Assembly: GCF_030013595.1 (NCBI RefSeq)
Contig: NZ_CP122768.1
Strand: one strand, 5' to 3'
DNA: 64,000 bases
DNA from: Escherichia coli
GTDB taxonomy: Bacteria > Pseudomonadota > Gammaproteobacteria > Enterobacterales > Enterobacteriaceae
The notes beneath the pieces were generated by a model. The model made no database searches and was not told the DNA's origin. It was given only the letters and a program-made list of their open reading frames with translations. Both the position numbers and the translations under genes were made by a program. Below, one piece after another: positions 1 to 27,883 of the stretch (within the stretch, counting starts at the first letter, position 1; every line of letters starts with the position of its first letter).

Positions 1-883
1 TTCTCTTTTTAAACTGTATGTCTTCTGGATTTCCCACTAACTGACTGAAATCTCCTTTCATAACTCTTTCGCTTGTTTCAAAGAGCTGTATTGCTATCGA
101 GTCGATTAATTCCTTTTTGGACAGAGATGCTTGTTCATAAAATTTGGTGACTAACTCTGTTGGTAACTTTCTTGAGACGACTTTAATGGACAGTCTCTGA
201 AATAGGTAAGGTGCCACCACGCCCACACTGAAAGGGTGAATCCTCCCTGGATTTAATAATTTTATTGTGACGTTTTCAAAAACTAGCTCATTGATTTTAC
301 TATTTATGAATTCCATTAAATACTTATCTAATGATAATGTTACCGACGCAACCGCTTCTATCACTTGTTTAAATGGCTCGCCTTTCAAGGATTTAAAAAA
401 CTCTTTGTTATAACCAAAGAAATCCACAAAACCTAAATTTATTCGATTTTCTTCTTTAGTATTTGAAATGCGAATTTGAAGTTGTTTTAAGTCTTCATCG
501 GTCAAGTATTTTAAACCATAGTCATCAAGCGCGTTACGTATAACTTTATCTGCAGATTCTAAGTCGATTACAGTTTTTACATTAAAAAACAATGATAACA
601 ATGAATCATACTTATGAACTCGCAAGGTTAAATCTGTTGCATTTGATGCGGTTACATTTATACGTCTCAAAAGATCAATAACTTTACTAATTGGTAGGCT
701 GTTTTCAAAAATTTTGAATGACTCGTATTCAGATACAACATCTTTTATATACTTACTGATAGTATGAGACTTTATTTCCACCTCAACTTCGGTTGAGTAA
801 GAATGAATTAGTGAGTTTGTAGTTTCAGCGATGTCATTTGATACATACAACTTATATTCGAAACAATCAGGAGCGGGAAGCAA
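1..883 (-). CDS. hypothetical protein, partial (continues past left window edge); AT-rich accessory gene
   Basis: Open minus-strand frame from 883 to position 1 (>290 codons, translated by hand); no in-frame ATG near the 5' end, candidate GTG start at 779-781 after GAAG; different frame from the upstream ORF; ~30% GC. Confidence 0.4.
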   Translation of the reverse strand, partial: MLPAPDCFEYKLYVSNDIAETTNSLIHSYSTEVEVEIKSHTISKYIKDVVSEYESFKIFENSLPISKVIDLLRRINVTASNATDLTLRVHKYDSLLSLFFNVKTVIDLESADKVIRNALDDYGLKYLTDEDLKQLQIRISNTKEENRINLGFVDFFGYNKEFFKSLKGEPFKQVIEAVASVTLSLDKYLMEFINSKINELVFENVTIKLLNPGRIHPFSVGVVAPYLFQRLSIKVVSRKLPTELVTKFYEQASLSKKELIDSIAIQLFETSERVMKGDFSQLVGNPEDIQFKKR

Positions 884-1233
884 CTATTATCAATAATGGA
901 AAACAATAAAAATTTAATTATTTCTCTTAATGCTTGCGGTCTAGTTATTCTACCTTGCATTTTTTTACATTGTATTAAACCACTTACAACACCGTTATGG
1001 TATAGCACGCAGTCGCGTCCTCTTTCAGAAACTCCTTGCATTAAAGATATTGAGGATATATTTTTATGCTTTCCATCTTCAATTTCGTTCTTTACTAACA
1101 AATAACATAGCAACTCAAATTCTCGATCACCTAATTCTGAAAAGGGAAGCAATCCGATACCAGAATCTATAGTCCATGGTCTATATCCTGATTGAGCCTC
1201 GATATTAATTTGTTCGTCACTGATTTTTTTCAC
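808..1233 (-). CDS. hypothetical protein with PD-(D/E)xK-like motif (GRD...16 aa...IQCK)
   Basis: 141-aa ORF, GTG start at 1231-1233 with AAGGAG 6 nt upstream; AT-rich; motif recognised by eye only. Confidence 0.45.
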   Translation of the reverse strand: MKKISDEQINIEAQSGYRPWTIDSGIGLLPFSELGDREFELLCYLLVKNEIEDGKHKNISSISLMQGVSERGRDCVLYHNGVVSGLIQCKKMQGRITRPQALREIIKFLLFSIIDNSCFPLLIVSNISCMYQMTSLKLQTH

Positions 1234-1248
1234 TTAAATCTCCTTCTA

Positions 1249-1277
1249 ATCTTATTGACCTACTCCCTACATTGTAA
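1249..1277 (-). promoter_or_regulatory. putative sigma70 promoter (TTACAA-17-TAAGAT) for the 808..1233 ORF
   Basis: -35/-10 hexamers with 17-bp spacer read on minus strand just upstream of the RBS. Confidence 0.3.
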
Positions 1278-1548
1278 CAGGGGATGATGATAAGGTGTAT
1301 CTTTCGAGCTATAAGCACGATAAATAAGTGATTAAAAATGACTCTTTAAACTATTTTAATTTAAAAAATTAATTGTTAGTTCTAATTATGGTATGAGGGC
1401 ATTTTCGGCATAGTTCTAACCATATACTTTGGTAAAAATGACTGTTACGGAACAGACCATAGTAATGCCTGCTATTGGCACGGAGCGGGCCGCCTGAGCG
1501 CCGTGGGGTCTGCAAACGGTAAGCATACCGATAACTATACGCTTGGCC

Positions 1549-1968
1549 TTAGTAACTTTTGCTCCCCTCAATAAATCCGCCATCTTTTATCGGACTGCAA
1601 TGTCCTTCTTCATCAATCAGTTGCTCGTCTTTCAGGTAGGTATATCGATAGATAATTGAGCCATTATCCATCTCACCATTGGTTCGTTTCATTAGGAGAG
1701 TAAAATGTAACGGGCTGTCCCTATATCGAGCTATTCCATGAATATTGGCAAGTACCTCATATTGACGCTCAGGTGATAACCCTTTAAATACATCGAGATA
1801 TCCATGGAATGTTCCATAGAGTGAAGAAGTGTAGATCAGTCGCTGCTCTGGACCAGTAACTTTAAGAGTAATTTGTTCACCCGTATTACAGGTTAGCTTG
1901 GCGGGAAATGTCTCAGCCTGAGCAGAAGAAATAGTCAAGCTTAAAATTATCAGGTAGCAATATTTCAT
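1549..1968 (-). CDS. small secreted/periplasmic protein of unknown function
   Basis: ATG at 1966-1968 gives 139 aa with N-terminal signal peptide MKYCYLIILSLTISSAQA; two Cys in mature part; longer track ORF has an implausible N-extension. Confidence 0.5.
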   Translation of the reverse strand: MKYCYLIILSLTISSAQAETFPAKLTCNTGEQITLKVTGPEQRLIYTSSLYGTFHGYLDVFKGLSPERQYEVLANIHGIARYRDSPLHFTLLMKRTNGEMDNGSIIYRYTYLKDEQLIDEEGHCSPIKDGGFIEGSKSY

Positions 1969-2250
1969 GTGATTAGAATGTCCAAAACTAACATGTATAC
2001 TCGGGATTCTATAACTAGTTGGATGTAGACCCAAGATGTATTGGACTATTCTTCGGTTGTAGTTGGTCAAATCATATATTTTATGTCAGCAATGTCTACT
2101 TTTGGCACATAGCAGACCAGAGACACTGGCGTAAAGCCATGGAGGATCGGTGGGAGGAGGTAAAAATCCTCTCATGCAAAAAATACGCAAAATCGATAAC
2201 AGTTGGAAATCATTCAATACTCGCACTATCGGAAGTTCACCAGCCAGTCG

Positions 2251-2298
2251 TAGCACGTTCTTGCATATGACGTGGCTACGGGTTTCGAGACCGACCCG
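2251..2298. repeat. degenerate direct copy (~85%) of the pin 3' end plus its downstream hairpin
   Basis: Aligns base-by-base with 3272..3320; contains imperfect dyad GTAGCACG..CGTGGCTAC. Confidence 0.5.
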
Positions 2299-2376
2299 AT
2301 CATCAAACGAAACATAAAATTAGCTCACATTATGAGGAAAGGTATCTTTTTGCGCTATGTAAATTCAAAGGGTTAG

Positions 2377-3246
<870 letters not shown>

Positions 3247-3271: not shown

Positions 3272-3320
3272 CAGCACGATCTTGCATACGACGTGCTACG
3301 GTTTCATTTATCTCCGACCG
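3272..3320. terminator. hairpin between convergent GIY-YIG gene and pin (likely bidirectional terminator); partner of repeat at 2251..2298
   Basis: Dyad AGCACG-13 nt-CGTGCT followed by GGTTTCATTT; overlaps last pin codons. Confidence 0.45.
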
Positions 3321-3894
3321 GAAACTTCTTATACAAAGTCGATACACCCACATCGTAGATAATCGCCACCTTCTGGCGAGGAGTTCCTGCTGCAATTAAT
3401 CTTCCGGCTTGTGCCCATTGTTCTGGTGTAAGTTTGGGACGACGTCCACCAATTCGTCCCTGTGCGCGAGCAGCTTCCAGTCCAGCTTTTGTTCGTTCAA
3501 CAATCAGTTCACGCTCCATTTCAGCCAGGGCACCCATCACATGAAAGAAAAAGCGTCCCATTGGTGTGCTGGTATCAATTGAATCCGTCAGACTATGAAA
3601 GTTGATGCCTCGTTCGCGCAACTCCTCCACCAACACGACAAGATGCCGCATACTACGCCCCAGCCGATCCAGCTTCCAGACAACCAGAGTGTCACCTGCC
3701 GATAATGTCCTGAGCAGTTTTTTCAGTCCCGGCCTTTCGGACTTTGTGCCGCTTATCTTGTCTTCAAAAATCAGCTCGCATCCTGCACAGTTCAGCGCAT
3801 TACGTTGTAGATCTGTGTTCTGGTCATTTGTTGATACGCGTACATAGCCAATAAGCATGGTAGATCCCCCTGACAAAAGCAGGAATGATGCCAT
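3304..3894 (-). CDS. pin: DNA invertase Pin (Gin/Hin/Cin serine recombinase family)
   Basis: 196-aa ORF begins MLIGYVRVSTNDQNTDLQRNAL, near-identical to recalled e14 Pin. Confidence 0.95.
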   Translation of the reverse strand: MASFLLLSGGSTMLIGYVRVSTNDQNTDLQRNALNCAGCELIFEDKISGTKSERPGLKKLLRTLSAGDTLVVWKLDRLGRSMRHLVVLVEELRERGINFHSLTDSIDTSTPMGRFFFHVMGALAEMERELIVERTKAGLEAARAQGRIGGRRPKLTPEQWAQAGRLIAAGTPRQKVAIIYDVGVSTLYKKFPVGDK

Positions 3895-3912
3895 TTGCTC
3901 GTTATTTCTGCA

Positions 3913-3938
3913 TTTTCATAAACGTTGGTTTGGGAGAA
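3913..3938. repeat. gix/pix-like inversion crossover site (pin-proximal)
   Basis: TTTTCATAAACGTTGGTTTGGGAGAA; reverse complement matches 5774..5799 at ~20/26 and fits the AAACC..GGTTT core of Gin/Hin sites. Confidence 0.6.
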
Positions 3939-4283
3939 GCGGCAAAGAGGAATGTGGGGACAGGAGAAAATCAGGTACCGGATATGAACAGCTTTGGTAA
4001 CTCATTGACCGCCAATGGATACCAGAAATTACCTGGGGGGATGATTATTCAATGGGGGAGTTTTTCTGTCTCACCAACCGGAGGAAGTGTTGGAACAGTT
4101 GATATAACATTACCTGTAGCTTTCCCTGCTGCTTGTCGTTCGGTAAACGCTCTTATTTCAACTAATGATCCTTCTGCCCGTTCTGTGGGCTTTGATATTG
4201 GAAGTACCAACAGAACTAAAATCAGATTTACTTACACTTCTGCTACAACAAATTCAATTTACTGGATGGCTGTGGGGTATTAA
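3939..4283 (+). CDS. alternative tail-fibre C-terminal segment (Sv'-like), silent in this orientation
   Basis: In-frame coding begins at the crossover site; followed by a tail-fibre-assembly gene; upstream part of track ORF 3885.. spans the recombination site. Confidence 0.6.
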   Translation, partial: AAKRNVGTGENQVPDMNSFGNSLTANGYQKLPGGMIIQWGSFSVSPTGGSVGTVDITLPVAFPAACRSVNALISTNDPSARSVGFDIGSTNRTKIRFTYTSATTNSIYWMAVGY

Positions 4284-4285
4284 CT

Positions 4286-4717
4286 ATGGAAAAGACATAT
4301 TATTTTAATCCCTCTGATTCGGGATTTTATATTTCACCAGATAGCCAAACCATTCCTGAGAACGCTACGAAAATAAACTTTACTATTTATTCTGAGTTCG
4401 CAGGAGTTGCATGGCCTGATGGTAAAATACTTGGTTCAGATAAAAATGGTTTTCCAGCATGGCAGGATGCGCCACCACTTACCAGCGAAGAATTAATCTC
4501 AATCGCTGAATCAAATAAACAGCGATTAGTTAATCAGGCCAACGAATACATGAACAGTAAACAATGGCCTGGTAAAGCGGCGATTGGTCGTCTGAAAGGT
4601 GAGGAACTGGCGCAATATAATTTGTGGCTGGATTATCTGGACGCACTGGAACTGGTCGATACTTCCAGTGCGCCAGATATTGAATGGCCTACTCCTCCGG
4701 CAGTTCAGGCCAGATGA
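4286..4717 (+). CDS. tail fibre assembly protein (alternative, U'-like)
   Basis: 143 aa; C-terminal [12 protein letters not shown] motif typical of Tfa proteins; inside invertible segment. Confidence 0.75.
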   Translation: MEKTYYFNPSDSGFYISPDSQTIPENATKINFTIYSEFAGVAWPDGKILGSDKNGFPAWQDAPPLTSEELISIAESNKQRLVNQANEYMNSKQWPGKAAIGRLKGEELAQYNLWLDYLDALELVDTSSAPDIEWPTPPAVQAR

Positions 4718-5294
4718 CATCCGGCGCGGTACTGGTATCTGTTGCCGTCACCGCGTCAATGTAATCCAGCACAGTGTTAAGTCGGGTGGTCTCTGCCTGC
4801 ATCAGCTTCCGCCCGGCCTGCAATTTCAGTTGAATCAGACTAATGGAAGCCATTGCAGTATCAATCAGTGACTGACGTTGTGCTTCTGCCGCGTCTACTG
4901 CGGCGCTATGCTGTGTCTCAGTATCCGTTACCCATTTCTCACCATCCCATTTATCGTATGGCGTTAACGGGGCGATAGTGGTTGTTTTTTCGGGGTAATC
5001 ACCCGGAGTTGTGATTTCTTTGGCGTCTCCCGTTTCGGTGTTATAGACGATTTCACCGCGATGGTCTGGTACATATTCCCATGAGTTAAAATCTGCAGAG
5101 CGGCAGATTGCATAACCAGCTTTGTAGGTGCCTGGAGCATCTAAACAGGAATATGCCGGAATGCCGACACCAACAGCAAGATATTCAGTTGAAGCTGAAA
5201 TATACTCCCGACTCATGACGTCAAAGTTATAAACAGTAATTTCTCCTGCCATAGTGGCAATTAATTCACTGTTTAATTCTGCGTTATTCATCAT
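4689..5294 (-). CDS. tail fibre assembly protein (expressed orientation, U-like)
   Basis: 201 aa; C-terminal [15 protein letters not shown]; directly downstream of tail fibre gene. Confidence 0.8.
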
Positions 5295-6076
5295 GCGGCC
5301 CTCACAATATAATTAAAGGCGATGTTACGTGGACGATTTTCATTTGCTGTTGGAACAACATTTGCCGCCGAGAAGTGAACATCTTGTCGGATTTTTCGGT
5401 CATTAGCGTATGTCATAGACACATTGATGTTATTCCGGACTGAGGTACCTCCGTAAAAAGCTCCACTCACACTTTGAACATCGACAATTGCATTAATTTC
5501 GCTGTTTACGCGCAACTGACCAAAACCGCCAGTAATGTTTCGAATAGCATCTCCTTGCGATGAAAGCAGAGTTCGCCCACTATCCACACCACGTTCATCA
5601 TCCCAGCCACGAATAAACTCACCGCGTAAATCAGGCAATTTATTTGTCGGGTAAGACTTTGCCAGTTCCGGGTATTCTTCAGCAGAAAAAGCCGCACCAT
5701 TGCATTTCAGCCAGCCTGTTGGTGGAGTGGCTGAAGGCCACGGAACAGGCACACCAACGGGTAATGCCGAACCTTCTCCCAAACCAAGGTTTTCGAGAGC
5801 TGTTTTCACCGTGCCATCCGATTTGATATCGCCAAACGGATTCTTGCGGCTTAACAGCAGCGCACGAAGCGCGGTAAGCAGCTGGTCATGCCGCCCCTTC
5901 TCCAGGCTGGCACCGGATGCCTCCACAACGCTGCAAAGCTCCTCCTGCAACATGTCAAAGTAGTCATCATCCAGATCGGTGGCAGGCGTGCCGGTCTGGG
6001 GGTTACCACGGGTAAAACCGTTCTTACCCGCGCCGAACTTATCCTTCTGCGCGGTTTTCGTGTCTATACGATGCAT
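5291..6076 (-). CDS. tail fibre protein (constant N-part fused to variable C-part)
   Basis: 261 aa; contains second crossover site about 92 codons in; position after Mu gp48-like gene. Confidence 0.8.
5774..5799. repeat. gix/pix-like inversion crossover site (inside tail fibre gene)
   Basis: TTCTCCCAAACCAAGGTTTTCGAGAG, inverted repeat of 3913..3938. Confidence 0.6.
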
Positions 6077-6079
6077 GGA

Positions 6080-6664
6080 TTACTCCGGATATTTAAAAAT
6101 CACATAGGTATGCGACGGGCAGAGTTTGTTAAGAACACACTCGACAACGGTGTCCCCCCAGAAGCGCAGCGCGGAATCACAGGGATCGCCACATGTCATC
6201 CAGGTGGTGTTGGTGGCGGCTGGCATGTTGACCTGCCAGTAATACCGCCATTCAGGCGCATTCACCGCGTCAGTACAGGCCGATGAGCAGGTGAACGTGC
6301 TTTTGTCGTATCGCGTGATGTTGGCATCCAGTCTGCCCAGGGCAGCAAGCTGTGCAAGATAAAAATTCTCGTTGATGCCGCCCGCCAGGTTAACCTTCGC
6401 ATCCAGCCGTTGCTGACGCTGGCGAAGGGTCTGTGTCCCTGTAGGAATACATTCATCCGGCAGGCCGCACAGACGCTCCCAGCGATTTATCAGTTCGGTG
6501 GTGGTGCGCGGATCCAGCTCCCGCATCAGGGCATCCGCACGCTGATGAACGCGGGTTAATGACGGTGCCGCACCGGCAATCGCCGGATCGCTGGCTGACC
6601 ACGCCGGACCGGGCGGCAACAGTGCTGACAACAGACGGATGTAATCATCGTTTGTCACGTCCAT
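6080..6664 (-). CDS. Mu gp48-like tail protein (YmfQ/DUF2313 family)
   Basis: 194 aa; resembles e14 YmfQ-type protein; position between baseplate J and tail fibre. Confidence 0.75.
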
Positions 6665-7713
6665 GAAATCGCCCCCAGAACCGCCAGTTCATTTTTTGCA
6701 ATGGTGATATTGTCCGCCGGTGCAAGCAACTGATGGCTGTATTCCCCGTTCGCACCGGAAATCGCTTCACTGATACGTGACACCTTCAGTTCTCCCTGCG
6801 GATAACCATCACGCAGCAGGAACGAACGCAACTCCGCGGTGATGGCAGCCCGTATTTCCGGTGTGTCCGGCGTAACACGGATATGAAAATCCACCGTATG
6901 TGCCACCGGCCTGAACACATACAAATCAGAGCCTGCCACCGGGGCCAGTGGCCCGATATGTTGTCTTGCCGCCGTTTCCGTTGATTCTTCCGGAATGGGA
7001 TTAATCAGGTCACTGCTGGCAATCATCACACCGACAGTCCCCGTTCCCATCCAGTGTCGGTATGTCCATGCGCGGGTAATGCCAGGCACTTCTTTAGCCC
7101 AGACGACATAGTCCCCGTCAGCCCCGCCCTGCGGCGTCCAGTAATACCGCTCAATGACGCGGGCGCGCCACGTTTCCAGCTCTTCAGTATCAAATCCGCC
7201 TGTCAGGGTGTCAGCCACACCGGAAGACGGCAGACCATTCACCGGCGTGACCAGGATTAATGCCGTACCGTCGTCAGCGTTACCGACCGCACCTGCACTT
7301 GAGCAGGCGATCGGCACGCGCAGGACACCACCGGAGCTGATTGCATCGTCAGTTGTCGTGTACTGCACCAGGTCATCGCGCTGAATAACACTCCCGGCAG
7401 TCACCTTCAGGCCATCGCTGACACCTTCCCAGCGCATATACCCGCTGGCAACCGTGGCTCCCTTGCGCGGACACCGTTTCATCGCAGCATGTCGCGCCAA
7501 CCAGGACTCATCGCACAGGTCAGGCAGCATATTCATTGCCAGATAATCGATGTAACCGTAGACCGTATGCAGCGCCGCCGCATACACCTTTGCCCGCACG
7601 TCTTCATCCATGCGCCGGAGCGTGTCGCTGACGTCCAGCCTGGCGAATAAATCGTTACGGAGCATACTGATATTTTCTGCCAGCGTCGGGCGCTGAAATT
7701 CACTGTCCGCCAT
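6655..7713 (-). CDS. baseplate J-like protein (Mu gp47-like)
   Basis: 352 aa; family resemblance and synteny. Confidence 0.8.
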
Positions 7714-8128
7714 GCGTTATCGCACTCCACAGATCATCAAAAGAAATCATTACTGGTCCATCACGACGCCAGAGGGTGATACTGTTACCCAGCTCATTAA
7801 TCCCGGTGCGGCGGATATCCAGATCAATACGGGACACCACGCCGTCATCAGTCATCCATTGCAGGCATTCGCGGATATATCCCCTTACCGTCTGCACCAG
7901 CTGATTGGTCAGTTTGCTGCGCTGAAGCAGCCACAGTCGGGAGCCGTAACGGTCATTCTGTACCGCAGGCCAGGTATCCCCCCACCATCCCATCGGGACG
8001 TCGGCATTGTCATCAGGCTCCGCCCGCCGCCAGGTGAACAGGGAAATCACCACGGCGCGGGTCAGCGGATCCAGCGGTGCGCTGGCGCAGGTGCGTTTAC
8101 CGTTCACCGTCAGCCACAGTTCCATCAT
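7700..8128 (-). CDS. baseplate protein, GPW/gp25-like (Mu gp46-like)
   Basis: 142 aa; synteny in Mu-like baseplate block. Confidence 0.75.
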   Translation of the reverse strand: MMELWLTVNGKRTCASAPLDPLTRAVVISLFTWRRAEPDDNADVPMGWWGDTWPAVQNDRYGSRLWLLQRSKLTNQLVQTVRGYIRECLQWMTDDGVVSRIDLDIRRTGINELGNSITLWRRDGPVMISFDDLWSAITHGGQ

Positions 8129-8673
8129 GCCTCCATCGCTTTATCAGGTTTGTCGGTGTTACTGCCCTGACCGTTCTCTCTGTGACGATGCCCGTTATAG
8201 GCAAGCCGCATCGCTGACATGGTGGTGCCGCCGGAGTCGCACAGGTCTTTCACTTGTCCGGTCACTTCCAGATCCATTTCAAAACGTGCTTCAGTTGCAT
8301 TGCGAAACGTGATCGTTTTCCCTGCACCGTCCACCACGATCCCCTCCCGGGTCAGCGTCACAGACTGCCCCTGATCGTCATAGACAGCCACCTCACCCGT
8401 CTGCAGCCCTTTCAGGCGGTAGCGCCGGTCCGACACCGTAACAACCACCGCATGAGAACGGTCGCCATCCGGAAACAACACCACCGCTTCCGCACCGCTG
8501 TTTGCCCTTGCGGTAAAACCGTAGGGTTCAAGATGTTCAACCCCGGCTTTGGGTTCACCGGCAATCAGGGACACATCCACGGTCTGACATTTCGTGGCGG
8601 CACTGATGCTTTTCACCACGGCCCGCCCAATCAGGCCGAGAAGTTGTCGCTGCATGGCTTCAATCGTCCTCAT
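8125..8673 (-). CDS. baseplate assembly protein V / spike (Mu gp45-like)
   Basis: 182 aa; synteny and family resemblance. Confidence 0.75.
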   Translation of the reverse strand: MRTIEAMQRQLLGLIGRAVVKSISAATKCQTVDVSLIAGEPKAGVEHLEPYGFTARANSGAEAVVLFPDGDRSHAVVVTVSDRRYRLKGLQTGEVAVYDDQGQSVTLTREGIVVDGAGKTITFRNATEARFEMDLEVTGQVKDLCDSGGTTMSAMRLAYNGHRHRENGQGSNTDKPDKAMEA

Positions 8674-9752
8674 CAGAACGGGTCCTCCTGTACTCTGGCT
8701 TTTTTCTTTTTCCGCGCGCCGGGGGCTTCGGGTCCAGGCAGATAAGCATCAGGCGGGCCGACACGGATTTCCGTCAGGGTGCCGTTCTGGTCCTGAGTAA
8801 ACGTGACTTCCGAGACAAGCAGTTCGGTATTGTCGAAACCACAGACCGGATCGAAGACAATCACCCGCTGGTTGGGCTGCCACAGCGTACCGTTACCCTG
8901 TCGCCAGCCCTGCACCACATAGGTGGTTTCATCCGTCCGCGCCGCCCGTTGCCGGGCTTCAAAGTCAGCACGCGCAATACAGCCTGCCCCCGTAGCCTGC
9001 CCTGTCTGCCTGATATACATCGGACGGTAACGGGCAATAAATGCGTCTTCTGTGCGGGCCCGCAGCGCGGTGGTGGTGGCCTCACCGAAATCATCGTCGT
9101 TTCCGGCACGCTGCCCCGCCACCTGGTAAACAGAAAACCGCTCCCGGATACTCTTCTCCGTATCGCAGGAAAGGATGTTTTCCCCGAGTACCAGCGCGGT
9201 ATGTGCCCGCGTTGAGCCAATACCGCCAATCACCAGCCTGCCGTGCGAGTCGTCGTAAGCCAGCGCCTGCTGCTGACCGAGTATTTTGTTGATCACCTCG
9301 ATCACCGTTTCACCGTGATCAGGCTGGACATCAGGAATAACACCCGACGGCGCACCGCTGTTCACCACCTCAATGCCGAAAGGCGCAGCAAGCGCCTGCG
9401 CAATCTGTACCAGCGATCGTCCGTTAAACTGTGTCGGTTCGGCTGCACAGTCAATCAGGTCAGCGGTCAGACTACGTCCGGCAATACCGGTGCTGACCGA
9501 ACGGGCATCGTAACGAACGGGCGTCGCCTCCACCCAGCCAGTGATCACCAGCTCATCACCAATCAGCACTTCCACTTTTGAACCGTTTTTAATGCGCGGC
9601 TGAAGCGTGGTGATACCCTCATCTCCCGGCCACTGGCGGGTGATCTCCACACTGAAATCCCGCGCCAGTCGTTCAACACCGGCACCGATGCGCACCGATG
9701 TCCAGCCATTCCACTCCCGGCCATTTACCCGTAGCGTGACGTTATCGTTCAT
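8673..9752 (-). CDS. Mu gpP-like tail protein (baseplate hub)
   Basis: 359 aa; synteny after DNA circulation protein. Confidence 0.8.
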   Translation of the reverse strand: MNDNVTLRVNGREWNGWTSVRIGAGVERLARDFSVEITRQWPGDEGITTLQPRIKNGSKVEVLIGDELVITGWVEATPVRYDARSVSTGIAGRSLTADLIDCAAEPTQFNGRSLVQIAQALAAPFGIEVVNSGAPSGVIPDVQPDHGETVIEVINKILGQQQALAYDDSHGRLVIGGIGSTRAHTALVLGENILSCDTEKSIRERFSVYQVAGQRAGNDDDFGEATTTALRARTEDAFIARYRPMYIRQTGQATGAGCIARADFEARQRAARTDETTYVVQGWRQGNGTLWQPNQRVIVFDPVCGFDNTELLVSEVTFTQDQNGTLTEIRVGPPDAYLPGPEAPGARKKKKARVQEDPF

Positions 9753-19910: not shown

Positions 19911-21129
19911 TGGCGTTATCCTTCTGCTTACCGGCTTTACTGCCATCGGAGGGCTTCGTGGTCATGTTCATCGGTGTGAGATAGACATCACCACCGGGAC
20001 GCGGATTCATATCTTCCAGGTCGCGGCAGTCATTGGGAGAGTAAATTCCCCAGTTGATCCCGGTGGCGTAGGCTTCAAAACGGGACTTCATATCCCCGCG
20101 CAGTAACGCCCCGGCGTTAAATTTGGCGTAATAAACACCCTGCTTACTTTTTCGTACCAGTCCGGTGTTGATCCGCTGCTCAATGCGGGTCAGATACGGC
20201 ACCAGTGAATAGTTGATAAATCCGAGCCCCAGCTCTTCGATATTGTTGAAGGTGGCGCGATCGGTGTTCTGCACCATGTGCAATGGCACACGGAACAGAC
20301 GACAAATTTCTTCAAGCTGAAACTTGCGGGTTTCCAGGAACTGGCTGTCCTCTGCGTTCAACGCCATCGACTTCCAGTCCAGCCCCATCTCAAGGATCAT
20401 CGGGCGGTGAGCATTGCCAAGCCCGGTGTGACGCTCCTCAAAATCTTTCTTCAGGCGCTCATAAGCCTGATCCGACAGCGTCTGCTCTGTACGCAACACA
20501 CCCGACGTCACCGCGCCATTGCTGAACAGTCTGGCCCCGTGCTCTTCGGTCGCTGCCGCCAGCGATATTGCCTCGCGGGCATAGGCGATGGGATTCAGCC
20601 CCACCAGTCCGTCCAGCGTCAGCGTGCGCACATGCCAGATATCCTCCTGGCTCAGTACATCCGTGGAGCCATCCGGGAATGTGACCTGATAGATCGGCTC
20701 CCAGCTACTGTTAAGCTTCGGTACCACACAGCCGGGATCGACGGGCAGCAGTTCAGCCACTTCGCCAAATGCTTTCACTTTGTAGGCGTAAAAGTTTCCC
20801 CGCAGGCACAGACAGGTGACCACCAGCTCCCAGAACTCCTGCGGCGTCATATAGTCATTGGGATGCGTGGAGATCAGCTTATGCAGACGTTCGCCAGTGG
20901 CTCTCTGCTTCAGGCTGCCGTTCAGGTGATACAGGTTGCAGGGCAACATCCCGACCGACTCCGCCAGCACCCTGACACAGGAAAAAACCGCCGTCAGTCG
21001 CATGGCCCGCTGGCTGCTGATCTGCTTTCCGGTATAGGTGTCGTAGGACAACCCGATAGCATCCGCCAGCTCTGCTGGCGTGGTCACCGGTGCGTCACTT
21101 TTTCGTTGAAATAATCCCGAAAAGAACAC
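19888..21129 (-). CDS. portal protein
   Basis: 413 aa; between terminase and protease. Confidence 0.9.
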   Translation of the reverse strand: MFFSGLFQRKSDAPVTTPAELADAIGLSYDTYTGKQISSQRAMRLTAVFSCVRVLAESVGMLPCNLYHLNGSLKQRATGERLHKLISTHPNDYMTPQEFWELVVTCLCLRGNFYAYKVKAFGEVAELLPVDPGCVVPKLNSSWEPIYQVTFPDGSTDVLSQEDIWHVRTLTLDGLVGLNPIAYAREAISLAAATEEHGARLFSNGAVTSGVLRTEQTLSDQAYERLKKDFEERHTGLGNAHRPMILEMGLDWKSMALNAEDSQFLETRKFQLEEICRLFRVPLHMVQNTDRATFNNIEELGLGFINYSLVPYLTRIEQRINTGLVRKSKQGVYYAKFNAGALLRGDMKSRFEAYATGINWGIYSPNDCRDLEDMNPRPGGDVYLTPMNMTTKPSDGSKAGKQKDNANADETTS

Positions 21130-21311
21130 TATTTACCTCCGCCGACAGACGACTGTGTACGGTCGAGATATCGCGCCACCAGCCACGACCAGAACAGGCA
21201 CAACGCCCCGGCAACAACAAACCCCGCCGGGGGATAAATCAGCCAGGCACCATACGCCAGCAAAAGCGCCCCCAGCACGCCCACCAGAGGCGCGAGAATC
21301 AGCATGATCAT
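21129..21311 (-). CDS. small two-helix membrane protein
   Basis: 60 aa, two hydrophobic segments; between terminase large subunit and portal. Confidence 0.35.
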
Positions 21312-21322
21312 AATTACCTCAG

Positions 21323-23056
21323 TTAAAGCGAGCGGATCCCATAGGACTCAATGTGGTCAGACAACGTGTCTTCTTTCTCGTACAGCATGGCTCTGCCAAC
21401 CGCCATAATCAGCGCAACTGCACCATCGATTTTGTTTTCCGCCTGCTCTTTGACGGGCTTCACCACATCATCGTTACCCGGAATGGTTTTGCCGACCACG
21501 TTGCCGATACACCAGGTCATGATGGGATTGCCATCATGATGAAAGCGCCCCGATTCAATTGCCGCTTCCAGCTCTTTCATCGGGTCGGACATGTTGGTGT
21601 AGTTCTGAATGATAGTGATGGGGTTCAGGTCTTCATCAGCCAGGTCATGTGACAGCCCGGTCGCCCCGAAGGGGTCGATGGGTGACTCACTGACCGGGCT
21701 GATTTTGTTCGCCGCTTTGGCCTCCTCGAGGATGTAGCGATAATCCACCTCCGCACCATCGGTAACGGTCAGAACGCCCATTACCACCCATTTCTGAAAG
21801 CGTTCGGCTGTCCGTCGATCTTCATTTTTCTCGACACTGTACACCGTGTCATACGGTACCCAGAAACGCGGGGCCACACTGTAGTAATGCGTTTTACCGT
21901 CAATCTCGCGGGTATAAAGTCGCGCCATGCTGTTCATATCCAGCTTACGCGCCAGGTCAAAGGCCAGAATGCACGGCTGCCCCTCGAACTGCTCAAGGGT
22001 CAGTGATTTATCCTCGCAGCTCTGCCAGCTCACCAGGTTGAAATACGCCGAACGCGCCGACACCCAGATATTGAGGTGCTTTGTTTTAAAGACGTTTGCC
22101 AGACGGGCGTTATTTTTCGCACGCTGCTGCTGACTTAACAAAAATTCGCGATAAACCGACACGCCAATATTCGGGTTAGCTTTTTCCAGCACCTGCGGGT
22201 CGGTCCAGTCATCGCCTTCGTCAACGGTATAGATGATCCCGAACAGTTCATCGTTGGGTACCGACCCGTTGAGCATCTCGATAACTTCCCGCCGCTTGTC
22301 GTAGCACGGCCCCTCAATGTTGTACCCGGCAGTAGTAATGGCCCACATCAGTGGCTGACGTCGCGCCCCCATCCCGGTAAGCATCGTGGTGTAAAGCGCA
22401 TCGGTGGCGTGCTCGTGATATTCATCCACCACCGCACAGTGGGGTGATGATCCATCACCGGGGTTACCGATCAGCGGTTCAAACCGCGCGCCATCCTCCG
22501 GACGGTTCATGTTTGAGGCGTTAACCTCAATCCCGAACGCTTCCGTCAGCATGGGCGTGCGTTTACACATCAGTCGCGCCGGGCGAAAGACTTCCCACGC
22601 CTGTTTCTCTGTCGTGGCACCGGAATACACTTCCGCGCCAAACTCGTTATCACAGGCAAAACAATACAGGGCAACACCGGCAGAGATTGCTGATTTGCCG
22701 TTCTTACGGGGGATTTCGGTATACACCTCCCGGAAGCGGCGCAACCGGGTGCCTTTATTGACCCAGCCAAACGCACAGCAGATCACAAAGAGCTGCCACG
22801 GCTCCAGCGTGATGGGCATCCTCTTGAATGCCCACTCACCCTTGGTGTGCGGCAACAGCTGAATAAATTTGGCGGCCCGTTCAGCCAGGTCCTTGTCGAA
22901 GCGGTAACGAAACGACTTACTTTTTTCCGCCATCAGGTCATCAAGATGGCGCTGGCAGGCCTGAATCACAAACTGGCAGGCCACAATCTTTCCGCGAACG
23001 ACATCCCGGGCATACTGATTGGCAGCATTTACGTTGGGGTAAGATTTCCGGCTCAT
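21323..23056 (-). CDS. terminase large subunit
   Basis: 577 aa; ATPase-nuclease family resemblance. Confidence 0.9.
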
Positions 23057-23556
23057 GATTCGATGATTTTCAGAAACGGGTTAGTAGCTTTCTTCTGCCC
23101 CGCCAGGCCAATCAGACGCTGGCGGCTGCTGGGGTCGAGTCCGAGCATTGCCCCCGTGCTGCTCATCTCGGACTCCTGTTCTTTTTTGGCGGTCAGCTCA
23201 GGATTTTTGACCATACCGCCCATTGCACCGGTGATGGTGTTGCCCTGTCTGGCAATATTTTTCACGGCACGTCGCCAGAACTCATAGGCCACACACCACC
23301 GCTCAAGCACCGCGAGGTCAGTCACGCACAGCAGGCCCTGACCGCAAAGTTCTTTAGTTGTCAGTTGCCACATGATCGTGGCGAGAGGGAGATCTTCTTC
23401 AGCGAACCACTCCGGTGGCTCAACACCTTTGATGGGCGTAAAAACAGGTTCATCTTTATTCAGGGCTCGCTTGCCGGGGTTTCCGGCCAGCGCCTTGCGC
23501 GCCGTTGGCTTGGGGCGACGCCCGGAACGCCCCGCCGTTCCAGCCATATGCGGCAC
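23053..23556 (-). CDS. terminase small subunit (P27 family)
   Basis: 167 aa; 4-nt overlap with large subunit. Confidence 0.8.
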
Positions 23557-23672
23557 TCCTGGTTAAATTTCATTTTTCGCGGGTATAAAAAAACGATGGG
23601 GCGGGCAGTCCGGAAGACGTCAGGTCACAGAGATTTGACCCGCCCCTCCCCTCAGACAGTTGAGAATTATTA

Positions 23673-24023
23673 TCACTTTAGCCGTTCACGGGCCGTCTTC
23701 GCCTTATGGCACGGCCAGCACAGGCTCTGCAGATTACTGTCTGCATCGGTGCCGCCATGCGCTTTAGGGATGATGTGGTCAACGGTTTTCGCCTCACGCA
23801 CCACACCAGCACGCAGACATAACTGACACAGGCCTTTGTCACGCTTCAATATGCGCGCGCGGATACTGTCCCACTTCGAACCGTAGCCGCGCTGATGACG
23901 GGATTGCCCCGGCTTGTATTGTTTCCAGCCTTCGTTTTTGTGGCTTTCGCAGTAGCCTGACGGGTCTGTAGTGGTATTACGGCAGCCGCGAACGCGGCAG
24001 GCTTTTGGGATTCGTGATGGCAT
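23673..24023 (-). CDS. HNH endonuclease (packaging-associated)
   Basis: HNH motif DHIIPKAHGGTDADSNLQSLCWPCHKAKT plus Cys-rich zinc ribbon; ATG 24021-24023 with GGAG 5 nt upstream. Confidence 0.85.
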   Translation of the reverse strand: MPSRIPKACRVRGCRNTTTDPSGYCESHKNEGWKQYKPGQSRHQRGYGSKWDSIRARILKRDKGLCQLCLRAGVVREAKTVDHIIPKAHGGTDADSNLQSLCWPCHKAKTARERLK

Positions 24024-24246: not shown

Positions 24247-25575
24247 CTGATGAATCCCCTAATGATTTTGGTAAAAATCATTAAGTTAAGGTGGATACAC
24301 ATCTTGTCATATGATCAAATGGTTTCGCGAAAAATCAATAATCAGACAACAAGATGTGCGAACTCGATATTTTACACGACTCTCTTTACCAATTCTGCCC
24401 CGAATTACACTTAAAACGACTCAACAGCTTAACGTTGGCTTGCCACGCATTACTTGACTGTAAAACTCTCACTCTTACCGAACTTGGCCGTAACCTGCCA
24501 ACCAAAGCGAGAACAAAACATAACATCAAACGAATCGACCGATTGTTAGGTAATCGTCACCTCCACAAAGAGCGACTCGCTGTATACCGTTGGCATGCTA
24601 GCTTTATCTGTTCGGGCAATACGATGCCCATTGTACTTGTTGACTGGTCTGATATTCGTGAGCAAAAACGACTTATGGTATTGCGAGCTTCAGTCGCACT
24701 ACACGGTCGTTCTGTTACTCTTTATGAGAAAGCGTTCCCGCTTTCAGAGCAATGTTCAAAGAAAGCTCATGACCAATTTCTAGCCGACCTTGCGAGCATT
24801 CTACCGAGTAACACCACACCGCTCATTGTCAGTGATGCTGGCTTTAAAGTGCCATGGTATAAATCCGTTGAGAAGCTGGGTTGGTACTGGTTAAGTCGAG
24901 TAAGAGGAAAAGTACAATATGCAGACCTAGGAGCGGAAAACTGGAAACCTATCAGCAACTTACATGATATGTCATCTAGTCACTCAAAGACTTTAGGCTA
25001 TAAGAGGCTGACTAAAAGCAATCCAATCTCATGCCAAATTCTATTGTATAAATCTCGCTCTAAAGGCCGAAAAAATCAGCGCTCGACACGGACTCATTGT
25101 CACCACCCGTCACCTAAAATCTACTCAGCGTCGGCAAAGGAGCCATGGGTTCTAGCAACTAACTTACCTGTTGAAATTCGAACACCCAAACAACTTGTTA
25201 ATATCTATTCGAAGCGAATGCAGATTGAAGAAACCTTCCGAGACTTGAAAAGTCCTGCCTACGGACTAGGCCTACGCCATAGCCGAACGAGCAGCTCAGA
25301 GCGTTTTGATATCATGCTGCTAATCGCCCTGATGCTTCAACTAACATGTTGGCTTGCGGGCGTTCATGCTCAGAAACAAGGTTGGGACAAGCACTTCCAG
25401 GCTAACACAGTCAGAAATCGAAACGTACTCTCAACAGTTCGCTTAGGCATGGAAGTTTTGCGGCATTCTGGCTACACAATAACAAGGGAAGACTTACTCG
25501 TGGCTGCAACCCTACTAGCTCAAAATTTATTCACACATGGTTACGCTTTGGGGAAATTATGAGGGGATCTCTCAG
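24247..25575 (+). mobile_element. IS10, complete 1329-bp copy
   Basis: Outside end CTGATGAATCCCCTAATGATTTTGG at 24247, inside end CTGAGAGATCCCCTCA (reverse complement) at 25560-25575; flanks GGTTCAACA and TATTAAGCG differ, so no 9-bp duplication. Confidence 0.95.
24354..25562 (+). CDS. IS10 transposase
   Basis: 402 aa beginning MCELDILHDSLYQFCPELHLKRLNS, matches recalled IS10 transposase over its length. Confidence 0.97.
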   Translation: MCELDILHDSLYQFCPELHLKRLNSLTLACHALLDCKTLTLTELGRNLPTKARTKHNIKRIDRLLGNRHLHKERLAVYRWHASFICSGNTMPIVLVDWSDIREQKRLMVLRASVALHGRSVTLYEKAFPLSEQCSKKAHDQFLADLASILPSNTTPLIVSDAGFKVPWYKSVEKLGWYWLSRVRGKVQYADLGAENWKPISNLHDMSSSHSKTLGYKRLTKSNPISCQILLYKSRSKGRKNQRSTRTHCHHPSPKIYSASAKEPWVLATNLPVEIRTPKQLVNIYSKRMQIEETFRDLKSPAYGLGLRHSRTSSSERFDIMLLIALMLQLTCWLAGVHAQKQGWDKHFQANTVRNRNVLSTVRLGMEVLRHSGYTITREDLLVAATLLAQNLFTHGYALGKL

Positions 25576-25604
25576 TATTAAGCGTCAATGAGCGTCTGGA
25601 AAGA

Positions 25605-26519
25605 ATGAAAGGCAGGCGCTCAGACATTACGGTGACAGAATGGCTTGATAAATATATTTCTATCCAGGAGGACAGGCTGCAACATAATGAACTAAGACCC
25701 AACTCCTATCGGCAAAAAGGCAAACCCATTCGTCTTTTCCGTGAGCATTGTGGAATGCAACACCTCAAGGATATTACCGCACTTGATATTGCCGAAATAA
25801 TTGATGCTGTAAAGGCTGAAGGTCATAACAGGATGGCGCAAGTCGTGAGAATGGTGTTGATCGACGTCTTCAAAGAAGCACAACACGCAGGACATGTTCC
25901 GCCAGGATTTAACCCAGCGCAGGCAACAAAACAACCGCGAAATCGAGTAAACCGCCAAAGATTGTCACTGCCCGAATGGCAGGCAATATTTGAAAGCGTA
26001 AGCAGACGGCAGCCCTATTTAAAATGCGGCATGCTACTTGCTCTTGTTACTGGACAACGTTTAGGCGATATCTGCAATTTGAAATTCTCTGATATATGGG
26101 ACGACATGTTGCACATTACTCAGGAAAAAACCGGTTCAAAACTTGCTATTCCGCTTAACCTGAAATGCGATGCTCTGAATATTACCCTTCGTGAAGTTAT
26201 ATCTCAGTGCAGGGATGCTGTTGTTAGTAAATATCTGGTCCATTACCGTCACACTACCTCTCAAGCAAACAGAGGAGACCAGGTTTCTGCAAATACTCTG
26301 ACAACGGCTTTTAAAAAGGCCCGGGAAAAATGTGGCATAAAATGGGAGCAAGGAACTGCGCCCACATTTCATGAGCAGCGATCTCTGTCAGAACGGTTAT
26401 ATCGGGAACAGGGTCTGGATACGCAAAAGTTGTTAGGCCATAAATCCAGAAAAATGACCGACCGATACAATGATGATCGTGGTAAAGACTGGATTATCGT
26501 AGATATCAAAACAGCATAG
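25605..26519 (+). pseudogene. lambda-family tyrosine integrase lacking the N-terminal arm-binding domain
   Basis: 304 aa aligning to lambda Int from about residue 65; catalytic motifs (HxxR, LLGH, DRY) intact; frame closes at a stop inside the IS10 end. Confidence 0.8.
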
Positions 26520-26529
26520 AAAATAGCCA

Positions 26530-26565
26530 GTTTTGGGGAAGGGTTTTGGGGAAAGTTTTGGGGAA
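26530..26565 (+). promoter_or_regulatory. three direct 11-bp repeats GTTTTGGGGAA (candidate integrase arm-type sites)
   Basis: Copies at 26530, 26543, 26555 between int stop and icd stop. Confidence 0.4.
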
Positions 26566-26580
26566 GATTTTACATCATCA

Positions 26581-26609
26581 TAAAACAACGGGCGTGTTAT
26601 ACGCCCGTT
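26581..26609 (-). terminator. icd transcription terminator
   Basis: 9-bp stem AACGGGCGT/ACGCCCGTT, 5-nt loop, U-rich tail on minus strand just after icd stop. Confidence 0.6.
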
Positions 26610-26632
26610 TCAATATTTAACACATGTAGAGA

Positions 26633-27883
26633 TTACATGTTCTTGATGATTGCATCACCAAACTCGCTGCATTTCAGCAGTTTAGCACCTTCCATCAGAC
26701 GTTCGAAGTCATAGGTTACGGTCTTGGCGTTGATTGCGCCTTCCATACCTTTAACAATCAAGTCTGCGGCTTCAGTCCAGCCCATATGGCGCAGCATCAT
26801 CTCAGCGGAGAGAATAATAGAGCCTGGGTTTACTTTGTCCTGACCGGCATATTTCGGCGCAGTACCGTGGGTGGCTTCAAACAGGGCGCATTCGTCACCG
26901 ATGTTTGCGCCTGGGGCGATACCGATACCGCCGACCTGTGCAGCCAGAGCGTCAGAAATGTAGTCACCGTTCAGGTTCATACAGGCGATAACATCATATT
27001 CAGCCGGACGCAGCAGGATCTGTTGCAGGAATGCGTCAGCAATCACGTCTTTAATGACGATCTCTTTGCCGGTATTCGGGTTTTTAACTTTCAGCCACGG
27101 GCCGCCGTCGATCAGTTCACCGCCAAACTCTTCACGCGCCAGCTGGTAGCCCCAGTCTTTAAACGCGCCTTCGGTGAACTTCATGATGTTGCCTTTGTGC
27201 ACCAGGGTCACAGAGTCACGATCGTTAGCAATTGCGTATTCGATCGCTGCACGAACCAGACGTTTGGTGCCTTCTTCCGAACACGGCTTAATACCGATAC
27301 CGCAATGTTCCGGGAAGCGAATTTTCTTCACGCCCATCTCTTCACGCAGGAATTTAATCACTTTCTCGGCGTCGGCAGAGTCAGCTTTCCATTCGATACC
27401 CGCATAAATGTCTTCCGAGTTTTCACGGAAGATAACCATATCGGTCAGTTCAGGGTGTTTAACCGGGCTTGGAGTGCCCTGATAGTAACGTACCGGACGC
27501 AGGCAGATGTAGAGATCCAGTTCCTGACGCAGGGCAACGTTCAGAGAGCGAATACCGCCACCAACCGGAGTGGTCAGCGGACCTTTAATGGCAACGCGAT
27601 ATTCACGAATCAGATCAAGGGTTTCAGCAGGCAGCCAGACATCCTGACCATAAACCTGTGTGGATTTTTCACCGGTGTAAATTTCCATCCAGGAGATTTT
27701 ACGCTCGCCTTTATAGGCTTTCTCGACTGCAGCGTCGACCACTTTCAGCATGGCTGGGGTTACATCTACACCGATTCCATCACCTTCAATGTAAGGGATA
27801 ATCGGATTTTCAGGAACGTTGAGTTTGCCGTTTTGCAGGGTGATCTTCTTGCCTTGTGCCGGAACAACTACTTTACTTTCCAT
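26633..27883 (-). CDS. icd: isocitrate dehydrogenase (NADP)
   Basis: 416 aa, [45 protein letters not shown]; full-length match to recalled E. coli Icd. Confidence 0.97.

Follow-up and report, generated by a model that had tools for sequence, protein, structure and literature searches.

The closest described counterparts of the locus analyzed here are the attachment sites of phage 21, of e14 and vB_EcoM-689R6, and of lambda and its relatives. In lambda/HK630 and HK022, three tandem, co-oriented arm-type sites, known as P'3-P'2-P'1, directly follow the int stop codon in the int-proximal arm, and the other arm holds more copies; the lambda arm-site consensus is C/AAGTCACTAT. For phage 21, a thesis by Schneider (1992) and a paper by Wang et al. 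(1997, J Bacteriol) are said to describe "repeated dodecamers" in attP, and M61865 is a further GenBank record for this attP system. Wang et al. reportedly delimited the minimal phage 21 attP to 366-418 bp, with limits that include the outermost dodecamers, proposed there as arm sites; the same paper reportedly addresses Int N-domain binding and the requirement for recombination, and is said to explain the long P' arm by the need for a functional icd 3' end and terminator. The general principle of phage-borne replacement of the end of a target gene is restated in PMC10111431.

When the 64-kb window (the whole stretch of E. coli DNA that was analyzed, 64,000 nucleotides) is examined in the context of these systems, a similar array is apparent between a truncated integrase gene, int', and icd. 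The 11-mer GTTTTGGGGAA occurs as three exact copies on the + strand, starting at 26530, 26543 and 26555 (start-to-start distances of 13 and 12 bp), and the + strand reads ...CATAG AAAATAGCCA GTTTTGGGGAA GG GTTTTGGGGAA A GTTTTGGGGAA GATTTTACATC...; TRF reports a single array at 26529-26571 with a period of 13 and 3.4 copies. The first-pass annotation of this DNA had described three 11-bp copies at 12-13 bp spacing in a 113-bp gap between the int and icd stops, next to the icd terminator hairpin, and all of this is borne out: the int' ORF ends at 26519 and the - strand icd ORF at 26633, leaving a gap of 113 bp at 26520-26632, and the hairpin falls within it. The range that it gave for the repeats, 26530-26632, does contain them, but corresponds to the entire spacer; the repeats cover only 26530-26567. 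The conserved unit is better given as the dodecamer TTTTGGGGAARR, as several relatives, like the P-arm copy, have A in place of the leading G of GTTTTGGGGAA, and the copy originally read as 26530-26540 corresponds to the first dodecamer listed here. Two further points were missing from the earlier description: the integrase lacks its arm-binding domain through an IS10 insertion, and the 3' 164 nt of icd are phage-derived. The features of the region are as follows.

24247-25575, + strand: IS10 (ISVsa5), 1329 bp, truncating int; identified by terminal sequences and transposase domain.
25576-26519, + strand: int', phage-21-type tyrosine integrase gene without codons 1-66; identity to phage 21 of 98.7%, starting at int nt 200.
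26531-26542, + strand: putative P' arm-type site, int-proximal dodecamer TTTTGGGGAAGG; exact motif, same in phage 21, -265 from the homology boundary.
26544-26555, + strand: putative P' arm-type site, middle dodecamer TTTTGGGGAAAG; exact motif, same in phage 21, -252 from the homology boundary.
26556-26567, + strand: putative P' arm-type site, core-proximal dodecamer TTTTGGGGAAGA; exact motif, same in phage 21, -240 from the homology boundary.
26587-26609, - strand: icd intrinsic terminator hairpin, supplied by the phage and flanked by the arm sites and the icd stop; found by terminator scan.
26633-26796, - strand: icd 3' end replaced by phage DNA (stop codon and the 53 codons before it), in the attL P' arm; phage 21 identity extends to 26796.
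26787-26796, no strand assigned: TGGCGCAGCA, end of the phage/host homology, marking the attL core/crossover region; the phage 21 attP alignment diverges right after it.
26633-27883, - strand: icd (isocitrate dehydrogenase), chimeric, with a host 5' part and a phage 3' part; from the ORF and the annotation of homologous regions.

The comparison with phage 21 att proposed in the first-pass annotation yields the same three repeats in the same place, where they are already annotated as attP subsites. Positions 25576-26796 are 98.7% identical to the phage 21 int-attP region over 1221 bp, and the repeats (base for base), spacer and hairpin are identical in three independent phage 21 records, in which the int stop, the icd terminator and the core are also placed as here with respect to the repeats. 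The complete genome of phage 21, OL657228, has a misc_feature covering precisely these positions, worded "attP ... 3 subsites P1P2P3; consensus YYTTCCCCAAAA" and followed by an annotated terminator and then an icd 3' pseudogene; this pseudogene (165 nt) is about the same segment as the 164 phage-type nt at the icd 3' end of the window. The feature is thus already known in GenBank. A full-text literature search for the repeat motif or the phage 21 dodecamers returned nothing relevant.

Similarity to phage 21 ends at 26796 (...TGGCGCAGCA), beyond which host icd follows in the window and the other attP arm in phage 21. Because the similarity stops where host icd begins, the window reads as the attL of a phage-21-type element, comprising the host icd 5' part, the core, the phage icd 3' end and terminator, the three repeats and int. 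Both the int-att identity and the place of insertion, in the 3' part of icd and with the replacement carried by the phage, are as in phage 21 attP/attL. The repeats therefore mark the exact right end (attL) of the prophage in icd, which is useful for genome annotation, and in this "icd" the terminator and the final 53 codons come from the phage. The same attL junction was found in 1678 of 5426 complete E. coli genomes (~31%), so that it is very common in the species. The feature raises no new biology.

Measured from the end of TGGCGCAGCA, the zero point for all arm-site distances, the sites of the window and of phages 21, 4A7, Perceval and ev207 lie at -265/-252/-240, and in each of these four phages, whose genomes are virion-derived, the opposite arm has a fourth copy in the same orientation, exactly at +120. 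The outermost copies of phage 21 span 396 bp (L001 1732-2127). In elements with an 83%-identical Int, from a host with GC-richer icd, TTTTGGGGAA is present three times, at -264/-251/-240; the motif is kept here although the terminator hairpin and the spacer downstream of the int stop are of another sequence. Comparison with e14, the other element named in the first-pass annotation, gives three repeats at the same core distances with a different motif: in e14 (K-12) and in vB_EcoM-689R6, which use the same attB in icd, TTTTGATAAC / TTTTGATAAA / TTTTGATAAC lie at -265/-252/-241 and TTTTGATAAC at +120, the e14-type motif being TTTTGATAA[C/A]. This combination of the same geometry with a different motif is expected of integrases with different arm specificity. 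Positions are thus kept within 1 bp across the 21-type elements, the 83%-identity relatives and the e14-type elements. In e14 and 689R6, int lies 1.9-3.3 kb from the repeats with cargo genes between, which places the repeats in the att architecture and not with the int stop codon or 3'UTR.

The arrangement also resembles that of lambda/HK630 and HK022 in its three tandem co-oriented sites right after the int stop on the int-proximal arm, in the presence of further copies on the other arm, and in a homologous integrase with the same N-terminal arm-binding domain. It differs from lambda in its motif (TTCCCCAAAA here), in its period (11-13 bp, against ~10-11 bp in lambda) and in its distance from the core (~240-265 bp, against ~55-85 bp in lambda). 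This longer distance is accounted for by the replacement icd 3' end and terminator carried between the P' sites and the core. No equivalent of the lambda H'-like IHF consensus was found here: between the P' sites and the core (the 230-bp P' arm, window 26566-26796) there is no match to the IHF consensus WATCAANNNNTTR with one mismatch or fewer. On the P arm of phage 21, an exact IHF consensus AATCAAACGGTTG is present at L001 2085-2097, between the core and the +120 site.

A few records depart from this layout. Three prophage or metagenome contigs (L007 3587-3981, L024 3655-4049 and L057 3655-4048) join 21-type P' sites and core to an e14-type P arm, with TTTTGATAAC at exactly +120, and L007 continues into the K-12 e14 P arm. 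These junctions are likely to come from tandem 21-type and e14-type prophages at icd; alternatively, L024 and L057 may be true hybrid attP sites. If the three contigs are single attP sites, the picture of one integrase and one motif fails. In phage D2 (L097 1080-1300, OM475427, a "partial genome" record), further icd coding sequence stands in for the P arm and joins midway through the +120 site (...GGGGTGGGGAAAGG...), and just two of the P' copies are exact; this looks like a product of aberrant excision or of assembly.

To follow the motif more widely, IMG/VR was scanned with DNA patterns only, and hence blind to integrases; a protein-guided scan was of little use downstream of int, since most prophage contigs end 3 bp after the int stop. 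Triple arrays of the TTTTGGRG type had a co-oriented upstream homologue of phage 21 Int in 65 of 72 cases (within 100 bp in 61), at 39-100% identity, and all 54 full-length integrases among these carry LYxKxD[KR]R in the N-terminal domain. Triple arrays of TTTTGATAA had such a homologue in 49 of 80 cases, at 57-61% identity, and here all 34 full-length integrases carry LYPLxSR. Motif and Int N-domain segment are therefore concordant at 88/88 loci, with zero crossovers between the classes. The 114 int-bearing arrays all show spacing of 13+11 or 13+12, and cargo lies between the int stop and the arm sites in 25 of them (21/49 of the e14 type versus 4/65 of the 21 type). As the arm sites keep their distance to the core, the interval between int stop and arm sites appears to tolerate moron insertion. 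The cargo consists of lit/ymfD/ymfE in e14 (L005) and of a DUF262 gene and another gene in 689R6 (L087).

Most arrays that lacked an integrase either consisted of perfect simple repeats, in contigs from giant viruses or metagenomes, or lay at the end of a contig. L122, L145, L169 and many of L177-L249, from metagenomic and GVMAG contigs, are perfect tandem arrays of the T4G4AA(G) or TTTTGATAA type. TTTTGGGG is the telomere unit of ciliates, and these integrase-less perfect arrays are simple repeats unrelated to att sites.

The motif is also found away from icd. Klebsiella phage ST13-OXA48phi12.4 (Int 50% identical, beside dcp) and E. coli phage 813R8 (Int 44% identical, beside potC) have the same motif in a 13+11 arrangement, which ties the motif to the integrase and not to icd. 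The excisionase of phage 21, Xis21, is 32-36% identical to every other Xis compared, motif-sharing phages included. In the sequences compared, the motif is thus seen to follow neither the target gene nor the excisionase.

Phage 21 Int is homologous to lambda Int over its full length (PDB 1Z1B, E 8e-55), and its residues 1-71 match the Pfam family Arm-DNA-bind_1 (PF09003, E 1.8e-28). Within this domain, residues 17-22 read C-K-L-D-K-R in phage 21 Int and P-L-Y-S-R-K in that of e14, and this six-residue segment sits in a β-hairpin that is five residues longer than that of lambda Int. We tentatively suggest that residues 17-22 may be the determinant separating TTTTGGGGAA-reading from TTTTGATAA-reading integrases at the same attB, an assignment that we hold at somewhat below even odds. 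The protein determinants of 21-versus-e14 specificity were described as unfinished work by Campbell (2012; PMC3530522). If swapping these residues swaps arm specificity, orthogonal integrase/att pairs at one chromosomal site would follow. The large-scale covariation of motif, geometry and N-domain segment is the only new element here, and it suggests where arm specificity is encoded.

Taken together, the identity with the annotated phage 21 attP, the conserved geometry and the covariation with the Int N-terminal domain make it very likely that the three repeats are P' arm-type integrase binding sites of a phage-21-type attachment site, present here as a prophage attL. The suggestion of the first-pass annotation that their position fits integrase arm-type sites is supported by the same three lines of evidence. 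The copies lie outside the core on the int-proximal arm, 240-265 bp from 26796, with the fourth copy at +120 in complete phage genomes; their orientation, spacing and core distance are fixed; the family has an integrase with an N-terminal arm-binding domain (phage 21 Int), which the int' of the window lacks; and the site sequence is specific to the integrase, as seen in the 54/54 and 34/34 segregation and at the dcp- and potC-adjacent sites. By homology with lambda Int (the 1Z1B and Arm-DNA-bind_1 matches), a mechanism can be inferred in which the dodecamers are bound by Int and are required for recombination. In an intact element, Int protomers would use their N-terminal arm-binding domains to contact the dodecamers, plus a further copy on the opposite arm, and their C-terminal domains to bind the core inside icd; this arm-core bridging would assemble an intasome competent for integration or, with Xis, for excision.

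An alternative is that the repeats are sites for excisionase or another accessory DNA-bending protein in place of integrase. Lambda Xis too binds tandem direct repeats, and between 21-type and e14-type elements both Xis and Int differ, so that this contrast alone cannot separate the two proteins. However, the repeats lie on the int-proximal P' arm, far from the core, and on both arms, as lambda Int sites do, whereas lambda Xis sites are confined to the P arm. Phages phi12.4 and 813R8 share TTTTGGRG, yet their Xis are 35% and 32% identical to Xis21, against 36% for XisE of the other motif class, so that Xis similarity is independent of the motif, whereas the Int N-domain segment tracks it at every one of the 88 loci. 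Xis-free integration in vitro is also reported, by Wang et al. in 1997, to need attP DNA out to the outermost dodecamers. We therefore consider an excisionase or accessory-protein site improbable.

Still less probable is that the repeats act as an RNA or DNA structure, whether as an int 3'UTR element, a G-quadruplex-like T4G4 or a buffer for convergent int/icd transcription. They do lie between convergent genes, upstream of a hairpin able to terminate both (a 9-pair stem with 6 GC pairs and the tail GTTTTATGAT, GTTTTAT after the stem, in the terminator scan), and TTTTGGGG is a G-rich, telomere-like unit. However, the array contains only three GGGG tracts, and an intramolecular quadruplex needs four; in the predicted fold of 26520-26640 (- strand) the terminator hairpin forms and the repeats are unpaired; and an Rfam scan of 26300-26900 gave nothing above the gathering score (best E 0.062). 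The repeats of e14 and 689R6 lie kilobases from int, the e14-type TTTTGATAA keeps the same geometry with no G-tract, and the +120 copy is on the other arm, outside the int transcript. Two prophage sRNAs were rejected as explanations, C0293 lying elsewhere in e14 and svsR at the cI 3' end, and so was an iteron reading of the repeats.

Replication slippage can yield short tandem arrays, but a reading of the repeats as a functionless duplication or a chance arrangement is effectively refuted by the conservation data. About 0.03 exact GTTTTGGGGAA matches are expected by chance per window, so that three within 36 bp are not chance, and a search of both strands of the 64-kb window returned no others. 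Motif, copy number, spacing and core distance are kept down to 39% Int identity while the flanks diverge. Degenerate copies with two mismatches or fewer number 12 in the window against 21.8 expected, which is not above chance. A one-mismatch copy, GCTTTGGGGAA, falls within the right end of IS10, at 25545-25555, and is taken to be a coincidence, as degenerate matches in the window are no commoner than in shuffles. CRISPR arrays have repeats of ~23-50 bp, unique spacers of similar length and usually cas genes, and a degenerate CRISPR-like mini-array, suggested by direct repeats at regular spacing, can be dismissed outright, as it was in the first-pass annotation: the units are 11-12 bp and 0-2 bp apart, there are no cas genes, and the array is fully explained as phage 21 attP.

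The copy of the system in this window differs from phage 21 attP in being the attL form, in having its int cut by IS10, and in being joined to late genes that resemble those of SfII and 689R6 and not those of phage 21. IS10 takes the place of everything upstream of int nt 200. Its transposase ORF (24354-25562) has a DDE_Tnp_1 domain, and the same protein is named "IS4-like element ISVsa5 family transposase" in RefSeq. An internal ATG at 25605 opens the longest ORF of int'; int' matches the catalytic and central domains in Pfam and has no Arm-DNA-bind_1 (PF09003) match. Without this domain, the integrase of the window cannot bind the arm sites. IS10 has no 9-bp target duplication (the flanks are GGTTCAACA on the left and TATTAAGCG on the right), and directly to its left are an HNH endonuclease gene and terminase genes, followed by late genes; this arrangement points to the loss of xis and of the whole early, immunity, replication and lysis region in a deletion associated with IS10. 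The window holds no xis, recombination, immunity, replication or lysis genes, and searches of the window for attR, an icd 3' duplicate and the phage 21 P arm found none. The arm sites here are probably an inactive relic, because IS10 removed the arm-binding domain and the window has no xis, early region or attR; the simplest reading is a locked prophage in which the arm sites are intact but orphaned. This orphan attL could be used in trans by a superinfecting 21-type phage.

The late genes at 5589-24023 (terminase, portal, capsid, tail sheath, tape measure, baseplate) share 97% identity with the Shigella phage group SfII/SfI/SfV and with vB_EcoM-689R6. With late genes of SfII/689R6 type and a phage-21-type int/att region, the prophage is, by sequence similarity, a mosaic of a myovirus structural module and a phage-21-type int/att module. 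Phage 689R6 itself uses a module of the e14 type at this icd site. At its far end, the prophage has possible cargo genes at 808-3246, namely an ORF at 2422-3246 (+ strand) for a LEM-3-like protein with a GIY-YIG nuclease domain and two ORFs at 808-1233 and 1549-2070 (both - strand) without a Pfam match. A Pin/Hin-type serine invertase (resolvase and HTH_7 domains) is encoded at 3304-3894 on the - strand, beside oppositely oriented ORFs for a tail-fibre C-terminal part and assembly protein at 3885-4717 (+ strand) and 4689-5294 (- strand); the arrangement at 3304-5294 suggests an invertible host-range segment of the kind found in e14, Mu and P1.
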